A DNA stretch of 64,000 nt from Cyclobacteriaceae bacterium (GCA_040902445.1 JBBDXJ010000293.1:2075-66074), one strand, 5' to 3'. Shown: positions 34,275 through 58,558, numbered from the stretch's first letter. Notes: a model not told the origin generated them from the letters alone. A program made the numbers and translations.

Positions 34275-34804
34275 GGGGGAATAAGGGGCATAACGGATAT
34301 AAGAGCTTTTTCGAAAGCAAGCACAGAATATGTACATGATCGACGTAGTTGCCGATCTAAACCGGAAAACATTCAAGATCGTTGCAAATTCCGCCTGGAT
34401 AACTTTGGAGTTCGGCTTCAATTGATTGATGAATCAGCCGGGCCCCTGTGTTTTTACCCACTTCCTATTCCGCCCCTTCAGGGCTTCTGTCTGACTGCAT
34501 TAATCCCCAGGGCTTTCACCCTGTGGGCTGATATATTGCGCCCTTTCAGGGCTGGATGCATTTAACCTTGCGATCGATTAATGCGAGTGTGGCACTATCA
34601 TTCTGAAAATATTTTTTCCTTTCCGTGCAACCATTACCCCTTCCCGAAGTATCCTTGGTAGGCAAAGGTGAAAAAAATGAGCCAGTCATTGGTTGTTGTT
34701 GTTAGTGGGCATTACCAGTTACCAACAATCAAAAACTAACAACCGGGATTCAACCTTTTGCGATCAGAAAACGATCTGCATCCGACTACATCAATCCCAT
34801 CGAT

Positions 34805-36626
34805 ATGTTTCAAAACTATTTCAAGATTGCCTGGAGAAATATGTCCAGGCAAAAAATGTACACCTCCATCAAGATCGGAGGTTTTGCCATCGGATTGGCT
34901 ACGTGTATTGTCATTGGGCTCTTCATCCGGCATGAATTGAGTTATGAATTACATATAAAGGATGCACAAAACATCTATCGCGTTTACAACCAGTACGAAG
35001 ATGGAAGCGGAACTGCCGTTCCCGCTCCATTTGCATCAATATTGAGGGCGGATTATCCCGAAATTGAAAAAGTTGCCAGGCTTATTCCCTACAAATGGTT
35101 CAAATGCAGGAAATAATCTCATGCGCCGGGACGATCAGCTTGAAAATACTTTTGAAGAAGGTTTCGCATATGCCGACCCGGAGTTACTAGAGATTCTGGA
35201 GATCCCCATGGTCTATGGCAGTCCTGCGCACGCGCTGGCCAAACCCAACACAATTGTTTTGGCAAAAAGCAAAGCCGATAAATATTTTCCGAATGAAGAC
35301 CCTGTCGGAAAAACAATCATTCTCAACGATGACAAGTCCCAGCCTTTTACAGTTGGAGGTGTGATGGAGGATTTCCCCCGGACATCGCACCTGCAATTTG
35401 ATTTTTTCATTACCCTTACCGGTAAAGAGTTTTGGCAGGGCGAACAGACTAGCTGGTGTTGCTGGAATTACAACCCGTATATCAAAGTAAGGCCTGGCAC
35501 AGATCCGGCTGAACTGGAAAAAAAATTACTTGCCATGAAAAATATCTATATCGACTACCTCGCGAAGGAAGGAAATCAATCTGTAAATGACGTACGCAAG
35601 TATCTTTTTTTTGTTTTGCAACCTGTGCGTGATATTCACTTGTTTTCAGCAGATATCGGTGACGCGATAGAACATGGCGACATCCGCTACATATGGCTAT
35701 TTGGTGGTATTGCCTGCTTTATCCTTGCGCTTGCCTGCATCAACTTCATCAATCTTTCCACAGCGAAGTCGGCAAACCGGGCTAAGGAAGTTGGATTGCG
35801 AAAAGTTGTGGGTTCAGTCCGGAGTCATCTTGTCAGGCAGTTCCTGACTGAATCGGTGATCTTCAGCATGGTCTCATTTGTTCTTGCCGTTTTTCTGGTA
35901 TGGATTGGCTTGCCTTACTTTAATGATCTCGCGGGCAAAGCCCATTCAATTCCCTGGGGAGCATGGTGGCTTTTCCCCCTTCTGACTGCATCGGCGCTCT
36001 TCATAGGAGTGCTTGCCGGCATTTACCCTGCATTTTATCTTTCATCCTTCAAACCGATCGATGTTCTCAAAGGAAGCATCGCGCGAGGTAGCAAAACTTC
36101 AGGCATGAGGAGTGTGATGGTTGTATTTCAGTTTACGACCTCAATCGTACTGATCATCGGCACGTTCATTATTTACCGCCAGATGGATTTTATTCTCAAT
36201 AAAAAGATCGGGTACGATAAAGACCAGGTAGTGATGCTGCAGGGCGCGAATACTCTTGGTAAACAGCAGCAAACTTTTAAAGACGAGTTGTTGCGCCTTT
36301 CGGGTGTACAACATGTTACAGTCAGCCAGTATTTTCCTGTGGATGGAACAACACGTGATCAGAACATGTTTTATCGCGATGGGAAATCCCAGGAAGAAAA
36401 AGGCTTTGGCGCACAACGGTGGTATGTTGATGAAGATTACCTCAGCACGTTAGCCTGGTATATGATGCAGAAATGGCTTCAGGATTACAAATACCGCACC
36501 GAGATCACCTGGGATGTTTTTGCGATCTCGGGATTTCTCGCTGTATTCATTGCCTTGCTTACGGTGAGCTACCAATCCATCCGGGCAGCTTTGGCAAACC
36601 CAGCGAATAACCTGAGGTCCGAATAA
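34805..36626 (+). pseudogene. MacB/FtsX-type permease pseudogene (frameshift plus ~200-aa internal deletion)
   Basis: The N-terminal 103-aa ORF (MFQNYFKIAWRNMSRQK...) and the 520-aa ORF overlap in different frames at 35064-35116. After ...YVDEDYLSTL (about 36450) the sequence jumps directly to the family C-terminus AWYMMQKWLQDYKYRTEI...LRSE. The rest of the second periplasmic domain and most of the second FtsX module are missing. Confidence 0.75.
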
Positions 36627-40556: not shown

Positions 40557-41309
40557 TTAAGCTCTTTTCTTTATTAGATCCAGAATGCCGTTGATAAAAG
40601 TCAGGGGGTGGATGGGATTTCCCGGCACGTAAAGGTCGACAGGGTGACGATCGAGAAACGTTCGATTAACGGCGGGGCTATCATCAAATAAACCACCGCT
40701 GATCGCATCGGTTCCTGCCAGAATGATGACTTTCGGATCGGGTATGGCGTCGTAACAAAGCTCTAATGGTTTTGACATGTTTTCCGTGATCGGACCCGTG
40801 ATCACGATTCCATCGGCATGCCGTGGCGATGCGACAAATTCGATACCGAACCGGCTCATATCAAAGTTCACGTTTCCGCAGGCGTTTAATTCCAGTTCGT
40901 TGCTGTTGTCGCCACCCGCGGAAACCTGGCGCAATTTTAATGACCCTTTAAAAAAACCGGCGATCTCTTTCCTGACCAGGGCAGGATCGGGTGTGATGGC
41001 TTTTAGAGCACCCTCGTGAATAATCAATCCTTTCCTGTCGTTGGTTGCCATCCGGTAATCTTTTGAAAATTTAATTTTATTCGGAAAGGCCCTGGCACAT
41101 TCCCCGCAAAAGGCGCATCTTCCGAGATCCAGTGTGAGGGGATTTGAACGGATGGCGCCTGTCGGACAAAAATCAATCAGTGCGTTTTCATCTACTTTGT
41201 CATGAGTGATTTCTGGTACTCCTCTGAATACGCCAGGAACTTCCGCTTTTGTTGGATCGGGAATGTATTGCTTTCCCTGACGTATTAATATTTTTATGTT
41301 GCCAATCAT
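40557..41309 (-). CDS. ferredoxin-like / NuoB-HycG-like small-subunit fusion lacking the proximal [4Fe-4S] Cys ligands
   Basis: 250 aa. The C-terminal part aligns to hydrogenase-3/4 small subunits (RFGIEFVASPRHADGIVITGP, PKVIILAGTDAISGG, VDLYVPGNPIHP), but the four Cys positions read D, N, D, N. The N-terminal part has DFCPTGAI and CAFCGEC. Confidence 0.75.
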   Translation of the reverse strand: MIGNIKILIRQGKQYIPDPTKAEVPGVFRGVPEITHDKVDENALIDFCPTGAIRSNPLTLDLGRCAFCGECARAFPNKIKFSKDYRMATNDRKGLIIHEGALKAITPDPALVRKEIAGFFKGSLKLRQVSAGGDNSNELELNACGNVNFDMSRFGIEFVASPRHADGIVITGPITENMSKPLELCYDAIPDPKVIILAGTDAISGGLFDDSPAVNRTFLDRHPVDLYVPGNPIHPLTFINGILDLIKKRA

Positions 41310-41318
41310 AGATTGCTT

Positions 41319-42824
41319 TTAGAGATCATGACCACAATAACTTAAGTCAAAGCTTTTGTTGGATATTGGAAAATCCGATATCTCATTATTTCTTACGGCC
41401 ATGGCCACTGTCAGCCAATTGTGCATAGAGGGATCTTTGATCCGATATTGATACAGTTCTCCTTTTTCGTCAGTGATGGCGCAGTGACAGATTTCTCCTC
41501 TCCATCCCTCCGTTAATGAAATTCCGAAGGTTTCGGGTTGTGGATGCAACAAAGGTGCACGCGTGGTTATTTCCGGCGGGATTTTGTGGATGATCTTCCG
41601 CAGGTAATAAAGTGTTTGCACAATCTCGTCGTGCCTGATCTTTGTGCGGCTGTAAACATCTCCGTGGTGTTTGATTATGGAAATCGGTGAAAATTCGTTG
41701 TACAGACCATGGGGATGTGTAGTCCGGATATCACGCATGAGCCCAGTGCCGCGGGCGGATATACCTACTGCCCCCAGGGACAAGGCAACATCATGGCTGA
41801 TTACACCTGTTTTTTCCAGCCGCGCCAGTGCACTGGGAAGGGTATGAAACTCTTTCCACATTTGATCAAAATCAGACTCATATTCCTGAAATAATTCTTC
41901 CAGCCTCACAGCAAGCGATTTGGTAAAATCAAAAGGGTTGTATCCGGGACGAATCAGGCCTTTCGCCAACCGGTTTCCACACCACTCCTGGAAGAAATTT
42001 ATCAAAGGCGTTCGCAGCCTTCCAAACACAGCGCTTCCGAGTTGGTAGCCAATGTCTGTGCAGATGGCGCTGAGGCCTCCCGTGTGCATTGCCAGCCTTT
42101 CTAATTCTATAGCAATTGTTCTCGAAAAGTGCAGGTCGGGAGGAGCAGTATAGCCGCATAAATTTTCCCAAAGATTAACAAAAGCCGTGGTATGACCCGC
42201 CACATTATCTCCCGCAATTGATTCCGCCAGGAGGGTGCGTTGCAGTAGTTTATGCTTTGACAAAAAAAGTTGCTCTATACCGCGGTGTTGATATCCGAGT
42301 TGTATCTCGAGGTGAAGAATTTGCTCACCATTGCAGATAAACCGGAAATGACCCGGTTCAATAATACCCGCATGAATGGGACCGACACCAACTTCATGTA
42401 GCTCTTCACTTTCTATCTGGTAAAAGGGATAATTCCCGATCACTGAATTTTTGTCTGCCCTGTCAGACGGATACCGCACAGGTTTTAACCACGGATGGTC
42501 TGAGAATTTCAATCCAAAGTTTTCATGCAAAACTCTCTCAAACACATGAAAGCTTAAATGATTTGCTGTAAAGGAAGGATAGGTTTGTGCGGATCTGGCA
42601 GAGATTTCGGAACTGGATACACAAATAGACGCATTACTGTCGTTGGCGATGCAGCAAATCAGCTTTAATTTTTCGTTGTGAGTGAACCCAAAATAATGAG
42701 CGCAATGATTCACCTCTTTACGGACGAGGCCGGTATTGAGCTCGAGAAAATCATCATACTTTAAGACTGGAATGGCTTGAAGGGCAATCGTACCGTTATT
42801 TGCTATGTTTATGTATTGACTCAT
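41319..42824 (-). CDS. NuoC-NuoD / HycE-HyfG-like large subunit lacking the NiFe-binding cysteines
   Basis: 501 aa. NuoC-like ERVLHENFGLKFSDHPWLKP, then the group-4-type VGPIHAGIIEPGHFRF. The L1 position reads ESIAGDNVAGH, not CGxCxxxH. The C-terminus reads FDLSYCGHDL, not DPCxxCxDR. Confidence 0.8.
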   Translation of the reverse strand: MSQYINIANNGTIALQAIPVLKYDDFLELNTGLVRKEVNHCAHYFGFTHNEKLKLICCIANDSNASICVSSSEISARSAQTYPSFTANHLSFHVFERVLHENFGLKFSDHPWLKPVRYPSDRADKNSVIGNYPFYQIESEELHEVGVGPIHAGIIEPGHFRFICNGEQILHLEIQLGYQHRGIEQLFLSKHKLLQRTLLAESIAGDNVAGHTTAFVNLWENLCGYTAPPDLHFSRTIAIELERLAMHTGGLSAICTDIGYQLGSAVFGRLRTPLINFFQEWCGNRLAKGLIRPGYNPFDFTKSLAVRLEELFQEYESDFDQMWKEFHTLPSALARLEKTGVISHDVALSLGAVGISARGTGLMRDIRTTHPHGLYNEFSPISIIKHHGDVYSRTKIRHDEIVQTLYYLRKIIHKIPPEITTRAPLLHPQPETFGISLTEGWRGEICHCAITDEKGELYQYRIKDPSMHNWLTVAMAVRNNEISDFPISNKSFDLSYCGHDL

Positions 42825-44254
42825 ATCTTCCGGGGCAAATGTTGAGTTGCGTCATGGATGAGATTAACGAGTTCTACGGGAGGATTCAATCCCAGGTAAA
42901 CCACCAGCGCAAGCAGCATAAACTGGCTGAGGGATTCTGCAGGGTGAATCTTTTTTATATTTTCTTCCTTGAAACCCAGCGTCCTGATGAAAAGCATTTT
43001 AAAAATATTTTTTCCCAAAGACCAGATAATCAGCGTGAGAAATAATAACACCAGGATGAGTAACCATATTTTCCCAGATTCAAAAATAGAGCGGAATATC
43101 AGGAACTCGCTGATGAACATTCCTGAAGGTGGCATTGCGGTTATGATAAAAAAGGCGAATAACAATACCATCGCGCCGGGTGTGTTGTATGCAAAATAAT
43201 TTCCGATATCGTAAATACTTTTGCTCCGGTAGATGCGGTAAACCTGGTCAACCTGAAAGAATAAAGCTGGTTTGGCAAAGGAATGTAACACAAGGTGGAG
43301 GATGGCCGCATAATAACCGGCGCCGCCCGAGGCCACACCCAGCATGACAATACCCATGTGTTCCACCCCTGAGTAGGCAAGCATGCGCTTCAGGTTTTTT
43401 ACACGCAAAATGTAAACCGCTGATACGAAAATGGAGATCAATCCTCCGATGACAAGGATCGTATTGGCCCACTGTGCGATCGAAGTGTTGGCCATTACTT
43501 CATAAATCCGGAATATGCCGAGGAATCCAACGTTGACCAATACACTTGCCAGTAGCGCACCTGCTGGTCCCGGCGCTTTATCTTTTGCATCAATTCCCAC
43601 CGTATACATCGGAACCAATCCTGCCTTAGCCGTGAAACCAGTGAAGATGAAAAGGAAAGCAAGCTTGAGCCAAAACGGGTTCAGCAATGGGGCATCGATG
43701 ATCAGTGCCTGGTAGGAGAGCTCTTTAAATCCCTGGTGTTGAAGGGCGATGCTCAGGAAAAGTATACCAACAAATACCAGGGTAATGCTTATGGAACAAA
43801 CAAATATATATTTCCAAGTGGCTTCCAGTGTACGTTCATTTCGATTGTGATAAACTAAAGCCGACGTACTGAGTGTTGTCAACTCCACAAAGATCCAGGT
43901 TACAGCAAGATGATTTGATAAATAGGCAGCACTGAGGGAAGCGATTAGAATCACCATTGCGGCATAATAAATGCCCCGTTGTCTCGGGATATCTTTCCGG
44001 TTATTGAAAAAAACATAGCTGTGATAGAACGCGGGCACACATACGATGCTGAGAATTCCCAAAAGAATAAGGCTCAATGGATCAAAGGTGAAATATTCAA
44101 GCGATGCGAGGTCCCGGCGGTTGAATGCGTGGACCGTTAGCACCCACTGCAACAGGATAAATGACCAAACCGCGAAATAGCTTATAATTCTTTTCTGTGC
44201 GAAGAAAAGTATCAGGCTTAAAACAAAACTCAGAATCAAATATATTCCAATCAT
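42821..44254 (-). CDS. HyfF/NuoN-like antiporter-type membrane subunit
   Basis: 477 aa, polytopic. WIFVELTTLS (TM5 Glu), FTAKAGLVPMY (TM7 Lys), HSFAKPALFF. 4-nt overlap with the large-subunit gene. Confidence 0.75.
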   Translation of the reverse strand: MIGIYLILSFVLSLILFFAQKRIISYFAVWSFILLQWVLTVHAFNRRDLASLEYFTFDPLSLILLGILSIVCVPAFYHSYVFFNNRKDIPRQRGIYYAAMVILIASLSAAYLSNHLAVTWIFVELTTLSTSALVYHNRNERTLEATWKYIFVCSISITLVFVGILFLSIALQHQGFKELSYQALIIDAPLLNPFWLKLAFLFIFTGFTAKAGLVPMYTVGIDAKDKAPGPAGALLASVLVNVGFLGIFRIYEVMANTSIAQWANTILVIGGLISIFVSAVYILRVKNLKRMLAYSGVEHMGIVMLGVASGGAGYYAAILHLVLHSFAKPALFFQVDQVYRIYRSKSIYDIGNYFAYNTPGAMVLLFAFFIITAMPPSGMFISEFLIFRSIFESGKIWLLILVLLFLTLIIWSLGKNIFKMLFIRTLGFKEENIKKIHPAESLSQFMLLALVVYLGLNPPVELVNLIHDATQHLPRKI

Positions 44255-44266
44255 AGTATTCCCGGG

Positions 44267-44896
44267 TCAATCTCTTAGTTGGCGTAGTTGCTCTGAATCA
44301 TGCTCTTTTAATACATCGCCGATCCTATTAACAAAAATTCCCAGCAAGAGCACGCTGACAAAAATATCAAGCATAATTCCTACGTTGACGACCATAGGCA
44401 TTTCACTTCCTGCCGCCAGGGATAAAACAAAGACGCCATTTTCAATGATGAGAAAACCCATTACATGGGTAATGATTTTCCGTCTGGAAACGATGATATA
44501 CAAACCGGTGAAAAGGGAGGATAGAGCGGCAGCAAAAAATATACCTTTCAGTTGATCTTCATGAAGGGTATTGGACAGCAGAAAAGAACCTATTATTATT
44601 CCGGTAATAATGACAACAGAAATAAAATTTGAAACGAATGGTTCCGCTTCCCTGGTCAGGTTATTTCTTTTGATGACATAATTGAGAAAAACCGGAATAG
44701 CGATCGCTTTGAAAACAATCGTTTCAAAAAGAATAAATATCAGATTGATTACGCTGATCTCAATCAATTCGATGAAGGCAACTCCAAAAAGAGCAACACC
44801 CTGAAAGGCCAGGATGGCGATGTAGGTGTAAAGGCGGTTTGCTACCACCATGTAGATGAGGCTAATGATCAGAATGATAAGCAAGGTGTTGGTCAT
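44267..44896 (-). CDS. HyfE-like (NuoK-related) small membrane subunit
   Basis: 209 aa, about 6-7 TMs. Size and position match hydrogenase-4 component E. Confidence 0.6.
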   Translation of the reverse strand: MTNTLLIILIISLIYMVVANRLYTYIAILAFQGVALFGVAFIELIEISVINLIFILFETIVFKAIAIPVFLNYVIKRNNLTREAEPFVSNFISVVIITGIIIGSFLLSNTLHEDQLKGIFFAAALSSLFTGLYIIVSRRKIITHVMGFLIIENGVFVLSLAAGSEMPMVVNVGIMLDIFVSVLLLGIFVNRIGDVLKEHDSEQLRQLRD

Positions 44897-44908
44897 AAAT
44901 TCTATGTC

Positions 44909-45823
44909 TTAACTGATTCTTCCCAGCATGAGCAGTACTCCCAGGAAAATTAATATTGAAATGGAGGTTAGTGTAAAAATAAACTGAGGGTTGTGGTTCA
45001 TCCGGAATCGCGCCATAAAAGATTCGATTGCACCCGCCACAATCGCAAAAAGAATCTCAACTCCTATAAATAATGGAATTGAATAATACAGGGCCATCCC
45101 CGGTGAAATAAATATATTGGCTATAAGGGCACCGTACATCGCGAACTTAAGATTTGTCGTGTGAAGGATAAGGCCCAGATCGAAACCACTATTATCCAGG
45201 ATCATCACCTCGTGCACCATGGTCAGCTCAAGATGTGTTTTCGGATCATCTACTGGCATGCGGCTGTTTTCAATCATGGCTAAGACGATGAATATAAAAG
45301 TCCCCAGCGCGCCCAGCGTATAAGAGATGTATGATTCAAAATGGAGGCTCTGAAAAATTTCAAAGAATGAAGTTTGACCTGTAAACAATGCAAAAGAACC
45401 CATAAGGATAAAAAAGGCAGGTTCGGCCAGCAACGAATATAGCGCTTCACGGCTGGCACCCATACCTTCAAAGCTGCTGCCTGTGTCCATGGCGGAAATG
45501 ATCATAAAGAATTTTCCCAGCGCCAGAACGTAGGCAAAGAATACAAAATCCCCTGGAAAGGACATGATTCCCGGCTGGTCACCAAATGGGATCAGCAAAA
45601 TCGCTGTGATAACGGTTGCAAAATAAATGCTGGGTGCAATCCGGAAAATGAAACTGGTTGTTTCACTGTAGACAACACCTTTCCGGAACAGGCGCCAGAT
45701 ATCCCGTAAAGGTTGAAAAACGCCAGGTCCTTTTCTTCCGGAGAAGATGCTTTTAGTACGGATCACTATCCCGGTAAAGAATAGGCTGGCCGTAATAATG
45801 AGCATAAAACTGATCATATGCAT
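44909..45823 (-). CDS. HyfC/HycD/NuoH-like membrane subunit
   Basis: 304 aa. SGRKGPGVFQPLRDIWRLFRKG and DTGSSFEGMGASREALYSLLAEP are characteristic of HycD/HyfC. Confidence 0.75.
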   Translation of the reverse strand: MHMISFMLIITASLFFTGIVIRTKSIFSGRKGPGVFQPLRDIWRLFRKGVVYSETTSFIFRIAPSIYFATVITAILLIPFGDQPGIMSFPGDFVFFAYVLALGKFFMIISAMDTGSSFEGMGASREALYSLLAEPAFFILMGSFALFTGQTSFFEIFQSLHFESYISYTLGALGTFIFIVLAMIENSRMPVDDPKTHLELTMVHEVMILDNSGFDLGLILHTTNLKFAMYGALIANIFISPGMALYYSIPLFIGVEILFAIVAGAIESFMARFRMNHNPQFIFTLTSISILIFLGVLLMLGRIS

Positions 45824-45825
45824 GT

Positions 45826-47850
45826 TTAAATCTGCCTGAAAAGATCCAGCACATACCCCATTGCATTTATCAAGAATGGGACGGTGAGAGTAATAAAAAT
45901 GAAAACAACTCCGTATAAAATGTAAAACTGAACACTGCCATTCTGTAAAACCCTGAACTTTTCCATAAAACCTCTGATATATTTTGTTGGAGCGTCAACG
46001 AACAAGGCCTCTATTTTATCATAAGGATGCGTTTTCGAATGTACACGTGTTGGAAACACGCCATGAATGGCTCCTTCCTTTTTATTCATAATGAGAAAAG
46101 GTCGTATCAGCTTCCGGTAGGAACGTACAAAAGAATTTGCGGTGTACTGAAATCTGGATGTTGGAGCGGTGTAACCACATGCCCATGTTGGCCCAACCGC
46201 AACGGTCCTGGTAGCGGTTGTAATTTTTTTTATACCCAGGACAAACATTGCCAGCGCAATTAATACCCATGCCGCCATGCTTACCAGTTGAAGGGTATCG
46301 ATAAATCCTGCCTGAATGGGATCCAGCGTATTTTTGCCAGTAAACAGGAAAACGGGGTTTGCAACGGCCCGAACAAAAAATTGAGGCAACACGCCAATTC
46401 CAATAATAAACAGCACGACAATATATTTTGGAAAAAGTTTGGAAAAGTCCGCTTCCTGAATAGTTTGATTTAAGAAGTGTCGCCTCGTCCCCAGAAAGAC
46501 AATACTGAATGCTTTCGTGAAACACAAAAAAGCCATGCCTCCTATAATGGTCAGACCGAAAATAGCAAAAATCATAACGATCGTATGGCCCAATGACTTC
46601 GAGCCGAAGTCGTTAAAGAGACCGGAATAAATAAAAAACTCTGAAATAAATCCATTGAGCGGTGGGAGACCTGAAATAGCAAGTGCTCCAGTTAGAAATA
46701 AGGCAGACGTCTGCGGCATTTTGTTTATCAACCCGCCCAGCTTCTCTATGTCCATTGTATGCGTAGTCTGGTAAACCGTTCCGGCGCAATAAAATAAAAG
46801 GGATTTAAAGAGTGCGTGATTAAAGGTATGCAACAGTGCTCCTGCAAATCCCGTAAATATCAGGAACGAATTGTTTAAGCCCAGGCCGATGGTACCGAGT
46901 CCGATGCCAATACCAATAATGCCGATATTCTCAATGCTGTGATAAGCCAGCAATTTTTTTAGGTTATGTTGTATAATTGCCAGCATTACTCCATAAATGC
47001 CGGTGATAAGCGAAAGAATCAGGATGGTATAGCCAATCAGTAATTGATTCTCTTTTATTAACAAGAGCATCCGCAGGATGCCAAAGATTCCCAGTTTAAT
47101 AATTACACCTGACATAATACCTGAGATGTGAGCAGGGGCTGCGGGGTGTGCGTATGGTAGCCAGGTATGAAAAGGTACAAACCCGGCTTTAAAAGCAAAT
47201 GCAATAAAAAAACAAATAAAAAGTAAAAAACTTATCGGTGGAATCACCGAGGAACTGTATAAGCCGATCGCACTAAAATTATAAGAGCCGGTCTCGCTGC
47301 TCACCCAAAGAAATCCAATGGTAAGAAATACAATGGTAAGGTGGGATTGGACGAGGTAATTGATTCCTGCCTTGAGTGTTTCGATTTTAGCGTGCTCAAA
47401 GATGATCATGAGGAAAGCTGAAATAGCCATGACTTCCCAGACACATAAAAACGCAAGGGTATTTTGAATGCTGTAAATACCAATCATGGCCATATGATTC
47501 AAAATGTAACCCGAATAGTGAAGGTTAATATTTGAAGACTGATGATGGTAAGGCGTCATGTAACGTATGCCATATAGGAGACCTGTTATCATGGTCAGGT
47601 TCATGATGAGGATAAACCATGCGGATAATGAATCTATCCGTATGAGAATTTCGCCAAAAACAAGACCGCCTCCAACAATGAATTCTAAAGGCGGACCCAC
47701 GAGGGCGTGGAATGCTATCCAGGAACTTACTGCCGCATTTAACAGCACAACCAACATTGCCATGATTCCTTTAGCCTTCCCCTTCAGAAATATGAGAAGG
47801 GCTAAAGAACACAAACTTATCAGGATCGATATGGTTAATATCCATTTCAA
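45826..47850 (-). CDS. HyfB/HyfD/NuoL-M-like antiporter-type membrane subunit (copy 2)
   Basis: 674 aa. WEVMAISAFLM, FKAGFVPFHTWLPYAHPAAPAHISGIMSGVIIKLGIFG, HALFKSLLFY, GFISEFFIYSG. Confidence 0.8.
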   Translation of the reverse strand: MKWILTISILISLCSLALLIFLKGKAKGIMAMLVVLLNAAVSSWIAFHALVGPPLEFIVGGGLVFGEILIRIDSLSAWFILIMNLTMITGLLYGIRYMTPYHHQSSNINLHYSGYILNHMAMIGIYSIQNTLAFLCVWEVMAISAFLMIIFEHAKIETLKAGINYLVQSHLTIVFLTIGFLWVSSETGSYNFSAIGLYSSSVIPPISFLLFICFFIAFAFKAGFVPFHTWLPYAHPAAPAHISGIMSGVIIKLGIFGILRMLLLIKENQLLIGYTILILSLITGIYGVMLAIIQHNLKKLLAYHSIENIGIIGIGIGLGTIGLGLNNSFLIFTGFAGALLHTFNHALFKSLLFYCAGTVYQTTHTMDIEKLGGLINKMPQTSALFLTGALAISGLPPLNGFISEFFIYSGLFNDFGSKSLGHTIVMIFAIFGLTIIGGMAFLCFTKAFSIVFLGTRRHFLNQTIQEADFSKLFPKYIVVLFIIGIGVLPQFFVRAVANPVFLFTGKNTLDPIQAGFIDTLQLVSMAAWVLIALAMFVLGIKKITTATRTVAVGPTWACGYTAPTSRFQYTANSFVRSYRKLIRPFLIMNKKEGAIHGVFPTRVHSKTHPYDKIEALFVDAPTKYIRGFMEKFRVLQNGSVQFYILYGVVFIFITLTVPFLINAMGYVLDLFRQI

Positions 47851-49838
47851 AGTATGTTGGAAAAAGTTGCTAAAATTAAAATCAGCATGAAAAGGAATCC
47901 ATACAGTATATAGAACTGTACCCTTCCGTTATGAACGAACGAGAAGTAATTCATAAAACTAAATAACTGATTGGAAATCCTGTTAAGAATATTTTTTTCA
48001 AAAAATTCCGCATAGTTTGATTGATAACTCCGGTTTGCCGGAAAGACAGTCCGGGGCTCAATTTCCGTATATTTTTTTTCTTCGCCGGTAATGAAAGCAA
48101 ATAACTTGGCAAGGGTTTTTGAAAATGATTTTCCGGTGTATTGAAATTTCTCACCGCGTGCTATATATCCGCCACCCCAGGTCGGAGAGATATTTACCGT
48201 TCTCCCGGAAACGATCCTGGATCGCACGTAGTAGATCGAAGCCGCCAGGAGTATTACTATCAGGGAGGCTATTCCAACTTCAGATACCATGGGAACAAGG
48301 GAGGGTATAATCTCATTTTCAGGAAGTGTATTGCTAAAGCCCTGCGCTATCTTTTCAATGGTCGTCAGTATCAGGGAGGGAAAAATTCCAATGAGCAGCA
48401 TTAAAAACAGAATGAGGAAAAAAGGCAGATGACGGTAAGATAAATATTCCGGTTTTGGATGAATGGTTTTATCACGGGGGTTCCCGAGAAAAATAACACT
48501 AAAGGCTTTTCCAAAAGTCAACAAGGCAATACCACTTACCAAAGCCAGTCCCACGATCGCGGAAATCATAAGTATGTTAAACTTAAAACCCGTTGCGCGA
48601 ATACCTTCTATCAGACCGGAAAACAGTAATAATTTCGAAACAAACCCGTTAAAAGGAGGGAGCCCGCAAATCGCTATGGCTCCGCACAAAAAGAAAAATG
48701 TCGTGGAAGGCATCTTTTTTATTAAGCCACCCAAATGTTCCATGTTCCGCGTATGGGTCAACTGATAGAGATTTCCGGCCGTGAAAAAAAGAAGGGATTT
48801 ATAAAGGGAATGATTCAATAGATGGAGAAGGGCTGCTGAAAAGCCTATCACCAAAAGAATTTGATTTCCGGTTCCTTTCCCGATCAACCCTATGCCAATT
48901 CCCATTCCGACAATCCCCATGTTTTCAATAGTAGAAAATGCAAGGACGCGTTTGTAATCGCGATGAATCGCTCCACTGAGTATTCCGTAAAAAGCAGTCA
49001 AAACTGACAACACAAGAATGCCTGCACCAATGATCACTAAATCCGAGGTCAGATAGGCAGACATTCTCAGAATGCCATATATTCCCATTTTTACCATGAT
49101 GCCTGACATGATCCCTGAAATATGGGAAGGAGCAGCAGGGTGGGCGTGGGGAAGCCACGTATGGAGTGGGATAAATCCTGCCTTTATCCCAAAGCCAATA
49201 AAAAAGAGTAAAAAGAGCCGGGGAGAATCGGCCTGATTGAAGGATCCGATTGACTCAAAGCCAAAAGATCCTCCTGCAACCGAAGCCCATATAAATGCAA
49301 TGGTCAAAAAAACAATCGCAATGTGCATCTGAACCATGTAGGTGATACCCGCATTCAATGTTTTGAACCGGCTGTAATCAAACATCATCAGGAGAAAAGA
49401 AGAAACGGACATGATCTCCCACACCACCAGAAATGCCAATCCGTGTTGAATAGAGCAAACCAGGATTAGGGATGCGTGAAAAATGACGAAGGAAGTCCAG
49501 TGAAGGGAAAGATTACTGCGCTGGGCTGAATACGCCTTCATATAATGAATGCCATACCACGCACCGGTTATACAGGTAATGTTGACGAGCAGGATAAACC
49601 ATGCAGATAAAGGATCGATTCGTAAAAGAATATCTCCAAATACCAAACCGCCGGCAATGGAAAATTCAATTGCCCTGGTTGCAAGAACATGTATTGAAAC
49701 GATCGAAGTAGTGACAGCATTGAGCAACACGAACAACAATGCTACCCTGGATTTTTTTGAGGGAGATAAAAGTGGAATAAGGATAGGGGACAAAACCGTT
49801 AACAACCCGGAATATAAAATCAGAAACCGACCATCCAT
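47847..49838 (-). CDS. HyfB/NuoL-like antiporter-type membrane subunit (copy 1)
   Basis: 663 aa. WEIMSVSSFLL, IKAGFIPLHTWLPHAHPAAPSHISGIMSGIMVKMGIYG, HSLYKSLLFF, GFVSKLLLFSG. Confidence 0.8.
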   Translation of the reverse strand: MDGRFLILYSGLLTVLSPILIPLLSPSKKSRVALLFVLLNAVTTSIVSIHVLATRAIEFSIAGGLVFGDILLRIDPLSAWFILLVNITCITGAWYGIHYMKAYSAQRSNLSLHWTSFVIFHASLILVCSIQHGLAFLVVWEIMSVSSFLLMMFDYSRFKTLNAGITYMVQMHIAIVFLTIAFIWASVAGGSFGFESIGSFNQADSPRLFLLFFIGFGIKAGFIPLHTWLPHAHPAAPSHISGIMSGIMVKMGIYGILRMSAYLTSDLVIIGAGILVLSVLTAFYGILSGAIHRDYKRVLAFSTIENMGIVGMGIGIGLIGKGTGNQILLVIGFSAALLHLLNHSLYKSLLFFTAGNLYQLTHTRNMEHLGGLIKKMPSTTFFFLCGAIAICGLPPFNGFVSKLLLFSGLIEGIRATGFKFNILMISAIVGLALVSGIALLTFGKAFSVIFLGNPRDKTIHPKPEYLSYRHLPFFLILFLMLLIGIFPSLILTTIEKIAQGFSNTLPENEIIPSLVPMVSEVGIASLIVILLAASIYYVRSRIVSGRTVNISPTWGGGYIARGEKFQYTGKSFSKTLAKLFAFITGEEKKYTEIEPRTVFPANRSYQSNYAEFFEKNILNRISNQLFSFMNYFSFVHNGRVQFYILYGFLFMLILILATFSNIL

Positions 49839-49908: not shown

Positions 49909-50178
49909 TTAAAAGAGATTTTCCGGTTCATGTTTCTGCAGGCTTTCAAATATTTTAATTGCTTTTGTGATATTGTCCCTCTCCTGAATAATTACTCCTT
50001 CCGCCTTGAGGTACTTGAGCGCCATAATCATATTCAGAATAAATCCCCGTTTTGAGTTAAAAGCATTCCGCCGGTTTTTCTGTAAATCCTGTATTGCCGC
50101 GCTGACTATTTCGATTAAAATTTTGTCATCCGCAGCGGCTTTAATCTTAATGATGACCGTGTGGCTGAAGTATACCAT
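49909..50178 (-). CDS. hypothetical small soluble protein upstream of the Hyf/Ehr-like operon
   Basis: 89-aa ORF on the same strand, 70 nt upstream of the operon's first gene. No TM segment, no Cys, no family I recognise. Coding status uncertain. Confidence 0.3.
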   Translation of the reverse strand: MVYFSHTVIIKIKAAADDKILIEIVSAAIQDLQKNRRNAFNSKRGFILNMIMALKYLKAEGVIIQERDNITKAIKIFESLQKHEPENLF

Positions 50179-50421: not shown

Positions 50422-50435
50422 TTGATTTAAATCAA
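50422..50435. promoter_or_regulatory. perfect CRP/FNR-type palindrome TTGAT-TTAA-ATCAA
   Basis: Read directly at 50422-50435, in the 475-bp region between the minus-strand small ORF/operon and the plus-strand Crp/Fnr gene. Confidence 0.55.
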
Positions 50436-50602: not shown

Positions 50603-50616
50603 GTGATTTTTATCAA
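50603..50616. promoter_or_regulatory. near-perfect CRP/FNR-type box GTGAT-TTTT-ATCAA
   Basis: One mismatch to TTGAT-N4-ATCAA. It ends 37 nt upstream of the Crp/Fnr gene ATG, so it could be an autoregulatory site. Confidence 0.4.
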
Positions 50617-50653
50617 TATTGCGTAACTTGCCTGCCGCTAAATTATAAATGTG

Positions 50654-51376
50654 ATGACAACGGGATTTCGGTCAGATGATTTCCGCTATAACACAAAAGG
50701 GATTTTCGAGGGGCTTTCACCGGAGAATCTGCAACCGCTTCGGGATGCAAGCGTTACGCATCGGTATAAAAAAGGCGAAATAGTTTTTCGCGAAGGAGGA
50801 ATCCCTGCGGGAATTTTTTACCTGGTAAGCGGGAAGATAAAAAAGTATAAAACGACCGCAAAAGGCGGTGAACAAATATTTTATGTTTGCACTGCCAGGG
50901 AGCTATTGGGTTATCATGCGATATTGAGTGAGGAACATTATCCTGACTCGGCAGCCACTATTGAAGACTCTGAAATTACTTTTATTCCCAAAGAGAATTT
51001 TCTGAAAGTTTTACAAGCCTCTCCGGTTCTGTCGAATAAACTTTTGAAAACGTTGGGTCATGAGTTCAGTGTTTTTATCAACAGTATTACGAGCCTGGCA
51101 ACCAAATCCGTACGGGAGAGAATAGCGCTGAATCTGTTGATCCTTGATGAAAAATATAAAAGGGAAGAAAAACAGGATGGGCCAGGTGAAATCAATATGT
51201 CGAGGACTGACTTTGCCAATATGGTGGGCACAGCGAAAGAAACGCTGGTAAGGTTACTGCAGCAATTTAAGAGTGAAGGCCTGATTGAGTCCAGTGGCCG
51301 GGCAATCAGAATATTAAACAAAAAAGGGTTGGTACGAGAGGCTAATTTTTCAGGAACGCATTCAAAAATGTTTTGA
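50654..51376 (+). CDS. Crp/Fnr family transcriptional regulator (no FNR-type Cys cluster)
   Basis: cNMP-binding-like domain (GEIVFREGGIPAGIFYLVSGKIK) and C-terminal HTH (RTDFANMVGTAKETLVRLLQQFKSEGLI). Only one Cys, so it is not an Fe-S FNR sensor. Confidence 0.8.
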   Translation: MTTGFRSDDFRYNTKGIFEGLSPENLQPLRDASVTHRYKKGEIVFREGGIPAGIFYLVSGKIKKYKTTAKGGEQIFYVCTARELLGYHAILSEEHYPDSAATIEDSEITFIPKENFLKVLQASPVLSNKLLKTLGHEFSVFINSITSLATKSVRERIALNLLILDEKYKREEKQDGPGEINMSRTDFANMVGTAKETLVRLLQQFKSEGLIESSGRAIRILNKKGLVREANFSGTHSKMF

Positions 51377-51438: not shown

Positions 51439-52608
51439 TTATTGCGTTACCAATCTTCCGGTTTTGCTGAAATGAAAAATCAGAAAACCTGCGGAAATCA
51501 GAAAAAGAAATCCTGCGGCCAGCATAAACGTAGCGGACAGGGATAGGGTGTTTAAGATCGGAAAAATTATTATGGGGGATAAGAACTGCCCTAAGAACCA
51601 GAAGGTTGTAAGCTTTCCAATTTCTTTTCCCCTGATTTCAGGTGGAGCAATTTTCATCACCCACATATTGGTATTGGGAATCATCATGCCCATGCCCAAT
51701 CCGGATAACATCATTGCAATAACAACCAATACATAGCTGCCAGAGATGGAAATACAAACAAATCCTGCAGCCATGAGTAAATACCCCATGGAAAAAACGG
51801 AAAGAAAACTAAACCGCCCTTTTATCCTCGAATAGGAAAAGGCTGACACTGCAGAGAATGCCGTACTCATTGCAATAGCGGCTCCTATCAAAGAAGTTTT
51901 CTCAATTCCAATGGCCTTCAGGTGAAAAGGTATTTGAACGGGTATTAAAAAGAAAATTATCCACATCAACATTGTATTAATAAACAACATCCATATTATC
52001 GGAGGTGACTTGACATGCTCGTTAACATGATTTCTTTTCTCTGCCAATATGGGCTCATGAAGAAACATTATACTGAGTGGTAGAACCAGAAGGGCAAATA
52101 AATAAATAAGGAATGGATATCGCCAACCAAAATCTGCAAGGATTCCTCCCAACCCAATAAACAGGATCCCGCCCAATGACATAAATGCTATCTGTATGCC
52201 AACAAATTTCTGACGCTCCATGCCCTCGAAGTAGTCGGCTATCAGTGTAATCACTATTGTCATAGACATGCCGACCGAGATGCCGAGCAGAGTTCTGGAA
52301 ATAAGGATGTGGTAAAGGTTATTCAGGAAATATCCGGCACAACCTGTTATGGCATAAAGCAAAAGAGACAACCAAAGAATTTTCAACCTGCCGTGCCTGT
52401 CAATAAGTCGTCCGGTAATAGGGGAGAATAGGGCAATCATTAGCGCCGGTATCGTCAATACTAATTGAACAAGGAGCCCTGCGTTTTCAACATCAGAGAA
52501 CTCCAAAACCATCTGTGGTAATGCAGGAGCAATGGTTATGACAGACATAATTGTAAGACTGCTGACAAGCAGAAGCGTTAACTTTAACTTCCATTTTTTA
52601 TTTTCCAT
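51439..52608 (-). CDS. MFS transporter
   Basis: 389 aa, 12 hydrophobic spans. GRLIDRHGRLK loop 2-3 motif. Confidence 0.75.
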   Translation of the reverse strand: MENKKWKLKLTLLLVSSLTIMSVITIAPALPQMVLEFSDVENAGLLVQLVLTIPALMIALFSPITGRLIDRHGRLKILWLSLLLYAITGCAGYFLNNLYHILISRTLLGISVGMSMTIVITLIADYFEGMERQKFVGIQIAFMSLGGILFIGLGGILADFGWRYPFLIYLFALLVLPLSIMFLHEPILAEKRNHVNEHVKSPPIIWMLFINTMLMWIIFFLIPVQIPFHLKAIGIEKTSLIGAAIAMSTAFSAVSAFSYSRIKGRFSFLSVFSMGYLLMAAGFVCISISGSYVLVVIAMMLSGLGMGMMIPNTNMWVMKIAPPEIRGKEIGKLTTFWFLGQFLSPIIIFPILNTLSLSATFMLAAGFLFLISAGFLIFHFSKTGRLVTQ

Positions 52609-52713: not shown

Positions 52714-54291
52714 TCAGGATCCCTTTTGTTTTTTCGGGTCCTCCGGTGGCGGTGGCAGAATGAATACTTTGGGTTGTGGTGTTACAGGTTCCAATTTTCG
52801 GCTTACCAGGGCCGGGTGATCCGCCGGGATAAATGTAGACCGAAACCCACTGTAGGTCATCGGCAAGGGAGCTATTGGATCGCCATTGGGCTTCCTTATT
52901 TCACCACGAAAAGGATTTAGATATTCCCATACTATTTTTCCTTCTTTGGTAACTTCAAAATAACGCCCTCTTGCTCCTTCGGTAATAAAAGTGTTGCCGT
53001 TGTTCATCCGGTGCGCGCCAGAAATGAAACTGCTGTAAAAGGAGACAGAGTCCGGAGCGATATAAGTCCAGACAGGATTTTCCGGGCCAAATGCCTTACC
53101 CTTCTCAATGATGTAGTTTCCTTTTTGATCTGTAGGAGGAATTATTTCATGAACGGCAGAATAATCCAGGCTATCCCGGTTGGGGATAGCATTATTGAAT
53201 ACTGTAAGATTACCCGCGCCGGGTTTTCCTTTCTCAATCCAGCGGATATCATGCTGACGAAATAATTTTCTGTTAGTAGAATCTCCACGGTGATAGTTTT
53301 CCGGATTTCCCCAGCGATAGAGAAAATCTCCTCCTTTGCCCCAGCGCCCCCCCGAATGACCAGCGGCCTCTTTAGTTGTTGTGCTGTGATCTATGATGAA
53401 GATCTCACTCAGATCAGGGGAGCTAAAAGCAATCTGGTCCAACTCGGCATTATACTTGATCGCGTTAACATGATAAACATCTGATCCTATATTTTCAGGT
53501 GTTTGATTTCTCCAACCCCTTCCCTGAGATTTTAAAATATCCATACTATCCTGGGTAATGAGGGGAGGTACTGAATCTCCAACATTAAAATCTAATAGTT
53601 CTGGGTGGTCTGAAGGCTTGCCATAGTTTGCTTTCCTTGCGTCATAATCCTGGATCAAGTGATCCCAGATATGCCATTCCCATACGATTTTGCCACTGCG
53701 CATGCCGTTTTGCTCAATCTCGATTATTTTATCGGGCCAAAGGCCTGCTTTTGGTGTTAATTCTGGTTTTCTGCCTGCTGCAAGGACTTGATCCGCTGTC
53801 TTCGCTTCCCATGCAATGGCAAGAATATTTCCGTTAGGCATCACCGTGAAATCATGGTGCGCGTGATACTCTTCATTGGCGTATTCAAAGTCCCACAATA
53901 TTTTACCGTCCCATGTGATTTTTTGGATTCTTCCGGTTTCTCCACCACCCGCAAAGACGGGAAAATCCGGATCAGCGACATTCTGCACAAGGGAACCATC
54001 ATCATTCAGGTAGGCACTCATCACGGTATAAATGCCTTTCCATTCGTGTACAACTTCCCCTTTCCGGTTGATGAGATAAGTCGACGCTGAATTCGGAACT
54101 GCAAACATCACATAGCCTTCCGTTAGACCTTCAGCGTTAATTGTTAAGCCGCGCGGAATCCTATGTCCGAACATGTTTCTGTCATTCTTGACAGGGGCCG
54201 CGTTGCTGGCCACTTTTTCCTTTTCTAAATCGCAGGATGATACTATTAATGCAAATACAAGGAAAAACGGAATGAGGTGCGTTTTTTTCAT
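52714..54291 (-). CDS. aryl-sulfate sulfotransferase (ASST)-like beta-propeller lipoprotein
   Basis: Start moved to the ATG at 54291 (MKKTHLIPFFLVFALIVSSC lipobox). HHDFTVMPNGNIL, WEWHIWDHL and YHVNAI motifs resemble the arylsulfotransferase family. Confidence 0.55.
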   Translation of the reverse strand: MKKTHLIPFFLVFALIVSSCDLEKEKVASNAAPVKNDRNMFGHRIPRGLTINAEGLTEGYVMFAVPNSASTYLINRKGEVVHEWKGIYTVMSAYLNDDGSLVQNVADPDFPVFAGGGETGRIQKITWDGKILWDFEYANEEYHAHHDFTVMPNGNILAIAWEAKTADQVLAAGRKPELTPKAGLWPDKIIEIEQNGMRSGKIVWEWHIWDHLIQDYDARKANYGKPSDHPELLDFNVGDSVPPLITQDSMDILKSQGRGWRNQTPENIGSDVYHVNAIKYNAELDQIAFSSPDLSEIFIIDHSTTTKEAAGHSGGRWGKGGDFLYRWGNPENYHRGDSTNRKLFRQHDIRWIEKGKPGAGNLTVFNNAIPNRDSLDYSAVHEIIPPTDQKGNYIIEKGKAFGPENPVWTYIAPDSVSFYSSFISGAHRMNNGNTFITEGARGRYFEVTKEGKIVWEYLNPFRGEIRKPNGDPIAPLPMTYSGFRSTFIPADHPALVSRKLEPVTPQPKVFILPPPPEDPKKQKGS

Positions 54292-54420
54292 GTGGAGTTC
54301 GGTTGGGGTTAATAAACTTACTGATTTATTTCCTATGTGAATAATTAATTTACCTGAAACCTGTCCCCGGAATAAAATAAGGACTAACTTCATTATATCA
54401 CCGGTCTAAACCCCACGAAA

Positions 54421-55101
54421 ATGTCAATCAAAATTATAGGAGCCGGATTACCCAGAACCGGTACAAATACACTTAAAGCTTCTCTTGAAAGACTCGGTTA
54501 TACAAAAACTTATCATATGAAGGAGCTCCTTGTACATCCTGAAAACCTTCATTATTGGTTAGCGCTGAAAAACACATCGACTACCAAATGGGATGAGCTC
54601 TATAAAGGTTTTCAGGCCACCGTGGACTTCCCAGGTTATCCGTGGTATAAGGAGCACATGAAACGTTATCCCGATGCAAAAGTGATTTTGACTGTAAGGC
54701 CTTTTGAAAGTTGGTATACCAGTATTTTCAGCACCATTTGGCAGGCAGGACCTCAAACTTTAGGTCAGAAATTAAAGATGATGTCCAGGCTCCTTTTCAA
54801 TCCCAGACTCAGGTCAGTAATTAAATGCGTTAAATTTGCAAAAGGAACAATTTTCGGAGACCACCTTCAGGGCAAATTTGCCGATAAAGCCTTCGCGGAA
54901 AAAATTTTTAATAAACACATAGCAGATGTTAAAGCACATGTTCCGGCACATAAATTACTTGTTTACGATGTTGGCGATGGCTGGGGACCACTTTGTAAAT
55001 TTTTGGGTAAGCCAGAACCAAAAGAACCACTTCCACATTTAAACAAGAAAGAAAATTTTAAGGAAATGTTGGTTGAACTCATGAAAGGCAACATGGTCTA
55101 A
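54421..55101 (+). CDS. sulfotransferase family protein (P-loop, Sulfotransfer_4-like)
   Basis: 226 aa. N-terminal IIGAGLPRTGTNTLKASLERLGY, a PAPS-binding-loop-like motif. Confidence 0.6.
   Translation: MSIKIIGAGLPRTGTNTLKASLERLGYTKTYHMKELLVHPENLHYWLALKNTSTTKWDELYKGFQATVDFPGYPWYKEHMKRYPDAKVILTVRPFESWYTSIFSTIWQAGPQTLGQKLKMMSRLLFNPRLRSVIKCVKFAKGTIFGDHLQGKFADKAFAEKIFNKHIADVKAHVPAHKLLVYDVGDGWGPLCKFLGKPEPKEPLPHLNKKENFKEMLVELMKGNMV

Positions 55102-58485: not shown

Positions 58486-58558
<73 letters not shown>

Follow-up and report, generated by a model that had tools for sequence, protein, structure and literature searches.

A 64,000-nucleotide stretch of DNA from a Cyclobacteriaceae bacterium (GCA_040902445.1, JBBDXJ010000293.1:2075-66074; called the window below) carries on its minus strand a seven-gene operon, B1-B2-C-E-F-L-S, the products of which resemble subunits of hydrogenase-4 and of complex I (Table 1). 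This operon very probably encodes an Ehr (energy-converting hydrogenase related) complex, a sibling of the group-4 [NiFe] hydrogenases and of complex I, and belongs to a distinct subclade in which a single iron-sulphur (Fe-S) cluster is left. The assignment to Ehr, already made in an earlier note written from the sequence of this DNA, is supported by the domain assignments, the top solved relatives and the full-length fold match of L to HycE, by a signature of the large subunit L that is common to nearly all of its 150 nearest database representatives, by a gene order that is the same in about 85 loci of several phyla, and by a gene set equal to that of the published Ehr clusters of Geobacter sulfurreducens (GSU0739-45, seven genes) and Desulfotomaculum (Desru_3260-65). 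Ehr complexes are described in the literature as devoid of the NiFe cysteines and as being without an assigned function, and no function assigned to Ehr was found in the searchable literature. Proteomics has shown the Geobacter complex GSU0739-45 to be produced, with a higher abundance on formate.

The former NiFe site of the large subunit

HycE of formate hydrogenlyase (7z0s_E) is the top match of L by sequence (1.2e-37) as well as by fold (template modelling score 0.76 over the full length). In the alignment 'RVCGICGFAH' of HycE is matched by 'SIAGDNVAGH' of L and the C-terminal 'DPCYSC' by 'DLSYCG', which places A204, N207, S495 and G498 at the NiFe ligand positions. None of the homologs of L, 80 from genomes and 121 from databases, contained the full set of NiFe Cys residues, in agreement with the earlier claim that the complex is not a hydrogenase. 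L terminates three residues beyond the C-terminal motif, and because of this it lacks a C-terminal extension for processing.

With HMMER, 491 matches below 1e-30 were obtained among 1.84 billion 50%-identity representatives. In almost all of the 150 nearest representatives (32-48% identity) both CxxC motifs are replaced by E-[AS]-G-D-[ST]..H and [ND]-S-Y-x-G-x-D, a signature that was derived in the present analysis and is not a published criterion; a genuine CG[VA]CH...CYSC was present in six of the 150. The residues around the former NiFe site of L that are invariant are E201, G205, D206, H211, R442, H447, S495, Y496, G498 and D500, with R442 at the position of the canonical active-site Arg. 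The loop between beta1 and beta2 is the hydrogenase-type 'GPxHxxxxEP', in which E156 is the Glu of the 'EP' motif.

The quinone head group is liganded in NuoD by His38 and Tyr87 (numbering of Thermus Nqo4). When L was aligned to 2fug_4 these two positions were occupied by I155 and G205, neither of which varies within the clade. Because the quinone-ligand positions have been taken by these invariant residues, L is predicted to lack complex I-type quinone chemistry.

L also contains residues that are specific for the clade, namely H40, C41, C57 and C58, which lie in the NuoC-like domain, together with C255, C446, C448 and H387; C164 also belongs to this set. About seven Cys and two His have thus been fixed in L, each conserved in at least 92% of the clade and absent from the Ehr complexes with three clusters that are described below, in a clade where the small subunit S lost eight Cys. 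C446 and C448 flank the invariant H447 on the 'RGEICHC' strand, just after R442. Judged by its conservation, the new Cys/His set could represent candidate metal sites. The AlphaFold2 (AF2) model of L was acceptable; it had a predicted local distance difference test (pLDDT) score of 77 and a predicted template modelling (pTM) score of 0.82, with the lowest confidence at residues 144-181, 256-263 and 485-501.

One surviving cluster in the small subunit

The small subunit S combines a ferredoxin domain (approximately residues 1-110, where the N-terminal match to HycF/NuoI is weak) with a NuoB/HycG-like domain. Its ligands were followed in 74 genomic and 121 database homologs. The four Cys residues of the proximal cluster of MbhJ and HycG align with D134, N137, D201 and N231 of S. 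D134 and N231 are present in all 121 database homologs and D201 in 119 of them; position 137 varies, being Cys, Asn or Ser. Alignment with HycF revealed that ferredoxin motif 1 lacks Cys1-3 and motif 2 lacks Cys4, that C48 is Cys4 of motif 1 and that C65, C68 and C71 are Cys1-3 of motif 2. C48 is essentially invariant and the other three are found in 121 of the 121 database homologs. In the 2x[4Fe-4S] ferredoxin fold, Cys4 of motif 1 and Cys1-3 of motif 2 are the ligands of one and the same cluster. S therefore keeps a full ligand set for one [4Fe-4S] cluster and has lost the distal and the proximal sets. In the alignment with Thermus Nqo9, C65, C68 and C71 correspond to residues 98, 101 and 104; the surviving cluster is presumably the equivalent of N6b, which adjoins N2 in the Thermus structure, and the motif numbering matches.

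The region of the former distal cluster is unconserved, whereas the former proximal site is a strictly constrained Asp/Asp/Asn. According to the earlier note the catalytic subunits were stripped of their metal ligands. This was correct for the NiFe and the proximal Cys residues, but S is not without any ligands, as C48, C65, C68 and C71 have been retained. The AF2 model of S was poor (pLDDT 57, pTM 0.42).

The one-cluster complexes form a clade within Ehr

Nine loci from more distant clades (L081-L089) were compared with that of the window. Five of them (L081, L082, L083, L084 and L088, including Acidobacteriota, Nitrospirota and Spirochaetia) have the same B-C-E-F-L-S cluster. S of these three-cluster loci contains both CxxCxxCxxxCP motifs and the proximal Cys residues of 'GGCNGCE / GxCAISGG / VPGCPPHP'. 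All 12 Fe-S Cys residues are present in L081, L082, L084 and L088 and 11 in L083, as against four of the 12 in the window and its clade. The small subunit of L085 (L085:11549-12088, 179 amino acids) has no ferredoxin domain and keeps the four proximal Cys, a trimming opposite to that in the clade of the window. The sequence of L086 stops before the S gene. About 3 kb upstream of the three-cluster operon of L081, which is from an Acidobacteriota metagenome-assembled genome (MAG), lies an Ech-like fragment (L081:1-1991; NiFeSe_Hases/49-kDa, NADHdh and 4Fe-4S ferredoxin).

L087 and L089, with 48% and 43% identity in L, are near outgroups. Because both are already one-cluster while L088 (45%) keeps all 12 Cys, it is concluded that the distal and the proximal ligands were lost in a single concerted transition, after which the one-cluster form persisted and diversified. 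The earlier note left it undecided whether a version that has also lost the NuoB cluster had been described. By direct comparison, such a loss is not a general trait of Ehr: it is clade specific, the three-cluster loci keep this cluster, and in the clade the distal cluster has gone as well. The positions that are invariant in the clade are identical in the three-cluster Ehr for 65% in L, 68% in S and 68% in B2; because about two-thirds of them are shared, the machinery of the junction is common to the one- and three-cluster complexes. D134, D201 and N231 of S are invariant in the clade only. No description of a one-cluster variant was found in the searchable literature, which left out Coppi 2005, where Ehr is said to have been named, and Marreiros et al. 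2013, who reportedly surveyed it.

The membrane arm

Residues of the membrane arm were identified by alignment to NuoM, HycC, MbhH and HycD in combination with conservation in the family. In both B1 and B2 the Glu of transmembrane helix 5, the Lys of helix 7, the Lys of helix 8 and the His/His/Lys of helices 10-11 are conserved. These are E141, K219, K250, H339, H343 and K347 in B1, where they are kept in at least 90% of the homologs, and E139, K221, K252, H341, H345 and K349 in B2, in which the Glu of helix 12 (E404) is conserved in addition. Compared with Escherichia coli NuoM, F retained the Glu of helix 5, the Lys of helix 7 and the Glu of helix 12; its conserved residues match those of B1 and B2, except that the Lys of helix 8 (K265 in NuoM) is replaced by a conserved Asn, N241. 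Conserved acidic residues of E are E58, E85, E152 and D177. The NuoH-type loop between helices 5 and 6 of C, 'ENSRMPxDDPxTHLELTMxHEVMxLDNSG', is almost invariant. Judged from these alignments, the residues for ion translocation are intact in B1, B2, F and C.

B1 and B2 are 42% identical, and both HyfB-like genes were present in 40 of the 55 loci that were roomy enough for two B genes. Because other Ehr clades carry one HyfB-like gene, B1 is an extra paralog that originated from a duplication within the clade. The single B gene of six other Ehr loci (the five three-cluster loci and L089) had a higher bit score against B2 than against B1 in all six cases; of the two, B2 is therefore the slightly nearer relative of the sole EhrA-type gene in most of the other Ehr clades examined.

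Distribution and selection

A pattern scan of species-representative genomes detected 401 loci. The best 80 of these have 60-73% identity in L. Among these best 80, the carriers belong to the Cytophagales, Chitinophagales, Saprospiraceae, Flavobacteriales, Bacteroidales, Lentimicrobiaceae, Prolixibacteraceae and Ignavibacteriales, and one to the Marinimicrobia; they are environmental Bacteroidota of groundwater, peat, wastewater and sediments. All 80 loci come from MAGs; one RefSeq protein is labelled 'unclassified Flavobacterium' and is possibly also MAG-derived. L of the window is 100% identical to a protein of a Cyclobacteriaceae MAG. In their sources these proteins are annotated as 'hypothetical protein', 'NADH-quinone oxidoreductase subunit C' or 'Ni,Fe-hydrogenase III'. 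The one-cluster Ehr is a distinct and widespread variant in the Bacteroidota, Ignavibacteriales and Marinimicrobia.

The order B1-B2-C-E-F-L-S was kept in every locus with enough DNA. The median ratio of non-synonymous to synonymous substitutions (dN/dS) was 0.09 for B1, 0.10 for B2, 0.04 for C, 0.05 for E, 0.05 for F, 0.07 for L and 0.06 for S; as dS was about 1-1.8 for the pairs used, the ratios are approximate, yet they lie far below 1. Purifying selection is strong on each of the seven genes, and the conservation of L and S equals that of the NuoH-like core. These results, with the kept gene order, support the view of the earlier note that this is a maintained, functional complex. They also bear on the L-S cap. 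Because the dN/dS values of L and S are low, because the replacements at the proximal site are invariant while the distal region is unconserved, and because 65-68% of the clade-invariant positions are shared with the three-cluster Ehr, the cap would seem to be needed rather than vestigial. The B genes are fragmented in L043 and L076, and L080 has shortened genes. Since these are MAG assemblies and dN/dS is low, the fragments were discounted as decay; judged by the contig names, the breaks are suspected to stem from long-read indel errors.

Organization and surroundings of the operon

The seven open reading frames (ORFs) were recovered with the coordinates, strand and lengths given in the earlier note, and their Pfam and NCBIfam families are those it had named. 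Its description of a packing suited to translational coupling was borne out by gaps of 2, 12, 12 and 9 nucleotides and by the ATGA overlap of F and L; the overlap of B1 and B2 (47847-47850), however, is TTGA instead of ATGA, TTG being the start codon of B2. B1 and B2 both match Proton_antipo_M in Pfam, and the NuoK-like part of E is its C-terminal half. For all matched proteins of the operon the NCBIfam scores are below the curated cut-off (461 and 452 bits against 667 for the HyfB model, 60 against 136 for HyfE and 215 against 610 for HyfF). Because these equivalog scores fall well under the cut-offs, the proteins are regarded as divergent relatives rather than orthologs of the Hyf, Hyc and Nuo subunits.

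Table 1. Features of the operon and its upstream region in the window (aa, amino acids).
Feature	Coordinates	Strand	Remarks
B1, HyfB/HycC/NuoL-like antiporter-like subunit, 663 aa	47847..49838	-	PF00361 2.6e-51; NCBIfam 'hydrogenase 4 subunit B' 461 bits
B2, HyfB/HycC-like antiporter-like subunit, 674 aa, TTG start	45826..47850	-	Solved-structure matches HycC 7z0s_C 2.7e-54, MbhH 6cfw_H
C, HycD/NuoH-like subunit, 304 aa	44909..45823	-	PF00146 (NADHdh) 1.3e-31; best solved-structure match HycD 7z0s_D 4.2e-22
E, HyfE-like small membrane subunit, 209 aa	44267..44896	-	NCBIfam 'hydrogenase 4 membrane subunit' 2.3e-16; weak Pfam Oxidored_q2
F, HyfF/NuoN/NuoM-like antiporter-like subunit, 477 aa	42821..44254	-	PF00361 3e-43; NCBIfam HyfF-type matches
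L (EhrL), fused NuoC-like and NuoD/HycE-like large subunit, 501 aa	41319..42824	-	Pfam Complex1_49kDa; HycE 7z0s_E 1.2e-37
S (EhrS), HycF/NuoI-like ferredoxin domain and NuoB/HycG-like domain, 250 aa	40557..41309	-	Pfam Oxidored_q6; MbhJ 6cfw_J 3.8e-23; HycG
Crp/Fnr-family regulator, divergent from operon	50651..51376	+	cNMP_binding and HTH_Crp_2
Perfect FNR/CRP-family palindrome TTGATTTAAATCAA (TTGAT-N4-ATCAA)	50422..50435	.	Between operon and regulator gene; only perfect match in the 64-kb window

The 38 other ORFs of the window (mostly of at least 120 amino acids) were scanned with Pfam. As the earlier note had claimed, none of them is hyp, hycI, fdh, hycB/hyfA or nuoEFG. No canonical nuo gene was found among them either. 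NuoA, NuoJ and NuoEFG are absent from the operon and from these scanned ORFs; the sole relative of NuoK is the HyfE-like subunit. Partner genes were sought in about 80 loci, where all ORFs up to 7 kb away from the operon were clustered all against all. No flanking cluster occurred in more than nine of these loci, the most frequent ones being a Crp/Fnr regulator and EPSP synthase, by which a linked Fdh, NuoEFG or Hyp module was ruled out. A linked donor or acceptor module was found in none of about 90 loci. An ORF of 89 amino acids at 49909-50178 on the minus strand, 70 nucleotides upstream of the operon, was considered as an eighth subunit and rejected, having no Pfam match and no homolog in the 80 loci.

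The Crp/Fnr-family regulator is the most recurrent neighbour (nine loci) and possibly regulates the operon in a subset of lineages. Because the regulator of the window has a single Cys, it is not an Fe-S FNR. In addition to the perfect palindrome in the region between this gene and the operon, a second, near-perfect FNR/CRP-type box is present in the same intergenic region at 50603-50616. Among the loci, four perfect boxes were counted in 35 kb upstream of the operon versus four in 1165 kb of background, an enrichment of about 33-fold, and these come from four of 59 loci. Control by an FNR box as a general feature was ruled out, as the boxes occur in four of the 59 loci and the regulator is without FNR-type Cys residues; what is left is a hint at the level of a subset. 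No Rfam match to a riboswitch or leader RNA was found in the 812-nucleotide upstream region at E values up to 1.

The window further contains four MacB/FtsX-type permease paralogs (14171-16639, 17080-19458, 23800-26229 and 35064-36626). The last of these is truncated, with 520 amino acids and a MacB_PCD match that starts at profile position 89. The statement in the earlier note that unrelated genes of the window are decayed fits this one shortened paralog out of four. An Rfam match to the Acido-Lenti-1 small RNA is located at 34506-34553 on the plus strand (39.3 bits, gathering score 37). An arylsulfotransferase-like gene (52714-54393, minus strand) and a divergent sulfotransferase gene (54421-55101, plus strand) lie by an MFS transporter gene (51439-52608) and are apparently unrelated to the operon. 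A transfer RNA gene (58486-58558, minus strand) adjoins an IS110-family transposase gene (59418-60497, minus strand).

A proposed gated exchanger and its alternatives

Our preference, which is tentative and put at somewhat less than even probability, is for a redox-independent, gated, Mrp-like cation/proton exchanger in which the canonical electron wire has been severed. The canonical path leads from a donor over the distal, the middle and the proximal cluster to the active site, and it is interrupted both before and behind the cluster that survives. Because of this, and because no genes for electron input or maturation travel with the operon, the complex would no longer be a redox pump driven by ferredoxin. 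The Lys/Glu/His chains of B1, B2 and F, together with the E-channel loop of the NuoH-like subunit, would still carry protons or cations, and the complex might operate as a secondary cation/proton exchanger powered by an existing ion gradient. The L-S cap would have been retained because it is essential for plugging and gating the NuoH-like subunit. In this arrangement the Asp134/Asp201/Asn231 pocket with E201, D206, H211, R442, H447 and D500 of L may be the charge- or ion-sensing trigger of the membrane arm, and the lone [4Fe-4S] cluster may be a structural element or a sensor of redox state or O2.

Several points weigh against a gated exchanger. A pure antiporter does not obviously need a cap that is so strongly constrained, nor the [4Fe-4S] cluster that was kept. 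The new invariant Cys and His residues of L could bind metals or Fe-S clusters and in this way restore a route for electrons. With the distal cluster lost, the middle one could be directly accessible to a soluble donor, and a metal that is redox-active or catalytic could reside in the Asp/Asp/Asn pocket. Partners may also be encoded elsewhere in the genome, as the search for them covered the flanks of the operon and the window. Finally, the N6b-equivalent label of the surviving cluster is an assumption.

Some of these points would be met by a redox-driven ion pump that persists in rewired form, an explanation that we consider unlikely but still a serious contender. Electrons from an unlinked ferredoxin or flavodoxin would pass through the surviving [4Fe-4S] cluster and new Cys/His centres in L (three Cys and one His in the NuoC-like domain and up to four Cys around the 'RGEICHC' strand), perhaps with a metal in the pocket of S, to an acceptor at the L/S/C interface. 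It speaks for such a pump that L gained seven Cys and two His as S lost eight Cys, that there is no variation in the surviving four-Cys set, in R442 or in the residues that surround the former NiFe site, that the Ehr of Geobacter is expressed and responsive to the electron donor supplied, and that a Crp/Fnr regulator and an FNR-type box adjoin the operon in some lineages. The new Cys residues, however, are known by their positions in the sequence and not by spatial proximity, and outside the clade they occur singly and not as a set. Besides, two Asp and one Asn are no known ligand set for an Fe-S cluster, the quinone ligands of complex I are absent, and the loci contain no linked donor or acceptor module. 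A converter that needs no redox partner at all would fit this lack of linked genes. In that case a Lewis-acid metal (Zn, Mn, Mg or Fe) in the former proximal-cluster or NiFe pocket would catalyse a reaction that consumes or releases protons, for example the interconversion of CO2 and HCO3-, and the membrane arm would couple this reaction vectorially to the ion gradient. A precedent is found in cyanobacterial CupA/NDH-1MS and in DabAB, where the hydration of CO2 is driven by antiporter-like subunits. The hard ligands Asp, Asp and Asn at the proximal site, invariant while the distal region drifted, and the conservation of residues of the proton-relay type (E156, E201, D206 and H211) are consistent with this idea. 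We nevertheless regard it as improbable: it is purely inferential, a carbonic-anhydrase-like or other catalytic signature is lacking, linkage to bicarbonate transporters or carboxylases was not seen, and the same L-site signature occurs in the three-cluster Ehr, which presumably perform redox chemistry.

Two further explanations do away with either the function or the loss of the ligands. That the operon is a functionless, decaying relic of a hydrogenase-4 operon would agree with the lost catalytic ligands and with the broken genes of L043, L076 and L080, but is very improbable in view of dN/dS values of 0.04-0.10 for seven genes, of full-length reading frames in the same order in about 80 loci of several orders, and of the invariance of the substituted ligand positions themselves. 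It is harder still to believe that the complex is a true [NiFe] hydrogenase, the ligands of which are merely shifted in the alignment. C497, one residue off the canonical C-terminal ligand, is conserved in 115 of 121 homologs and could be taken to point that way. The three independent alignments to HycE, MbhL and Nqo4 concur, however, and in about 200 homologs no Cys is close enough to the N-terminal motif A-G-D-N/T; there is no proximal cluster, L has no C-terminal extension, no hyp gene was found in the scanned ORFs of the window, and genuine hydrogenases displayed CG[VA]CH...CYSC clearly in the same search. Both the relic and the cryptic hydrogenase are effectively excluded.

For complex I and its hydrogenase relatives, the central question is by what means chemistry at the NuoB/NuoD/NuoH junction drives the pumping of ions. 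To our knowledge, the N2 cluster is otherwise universal in the complex I/membrane-hydrogenase superfamily. It is conceivable, and we advance this with reserve, as the opposite is the more probable, that the complex is the first natural member of this superfamily to run a membrane arm without a proximal (N2-type) cluster or a continuous wire, by a non-redox conversion or by re-invented cofactors made up of the new Cys/His residues of L. In the non-redox form, the antiporter modules would be driven or gated from the Asp/Asp/Asn pocket of the cap, by an event that involves a charge, an ion or a ligand. If true, this would be a natural 'minimal coupling' experiment on the role of the NuoB-NuoD-NuoH junction once electron transfer has been removed. 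The clade keeps junction and pump under selection and has dropped two of the three feeding clusters, which offers a natural dissection of coupling with concrete targets: the Asp134/Asp201/Asn231 pocket, the lone [4Fe-4S] cluster and the new Cys/His set of L. It also concerns a widespread bioenergetic module that is currently mis-annotated or unannotated.

Comparison with known systems

With the known Ehr complexes the system of the window shares the subunit order, the signature of the NiFe-less large subunit, the ferredoxin-NuoB fusion and the lack of a linked maturation or input module. It differs from the three-cluster loci in having one cluster instead of three, the Asp/Asp/Asn site, the new Cys and His residues of L and, usually, a second HyfB-like subunit.

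Among solved structures, hydrogenase-4 and formate hydrogenlyase of E. coli (HyfB-I; HycB-G, 7Z0S; group 4a) come closest to L, S, C and B2 by sequence, and to L by fold as well. The search for solved relatives comprised these four subunits and F, for which NdhD, MbsH and NuoM came out on top; B1 and E were outside it. The likeness to Hyf/Hyc extends to the fused NuoC-NuoD large subunit, the Hyf-like gene order and the 'GPxHxxxxEP' loop. Unlike Hyf/Hyc, the system of the window lacks the NiFe ligands, the proximal cluster and HycB/HyfA and keeps one of the two HycF clusters; L has no processing tail, and no formate dehydrogenase, HycI or Hyp gene is present in the scanned ORFs of the window. 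With complex I/NDH-1 it has in common the 'universal adaptor' set of NuoB-, NuoD-, NuoH- and NuoL/M/N-like proteins, the Lys/Glu chain and the NuoH loop, whereas N2, the quinone ligands (His38 replaced by Ile, Tyr87 by Gly), NuoA, NuoJ and NuoEFG are missing.

Mrp antiporters resemble the membrane arm in their conserved charged residues, and the solved relatives of B2 include MrpA and MrpD. Mrp has no counterpart of the NuoH-, NuoD- and NuoB-like proteins of the operon, which in turn encodes none of the Mrp small subunits (MrpB, MrpC, MrpE, MrpF and MrpG); Mrp is only a possible functional analogue, and the operon is not a member of that family. MBS/Mbx (6U8Y) keeps three Fe-S clusters, of which the proximal one is catalytic, and is more distant from L (4.6e-14 for MbsL versus 1.2e-37 for HycE). 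It nevertheless provides the precedent of a relative of the group-4 hydrogenases that has no NiFe chemistry and yet is still an ion pump.

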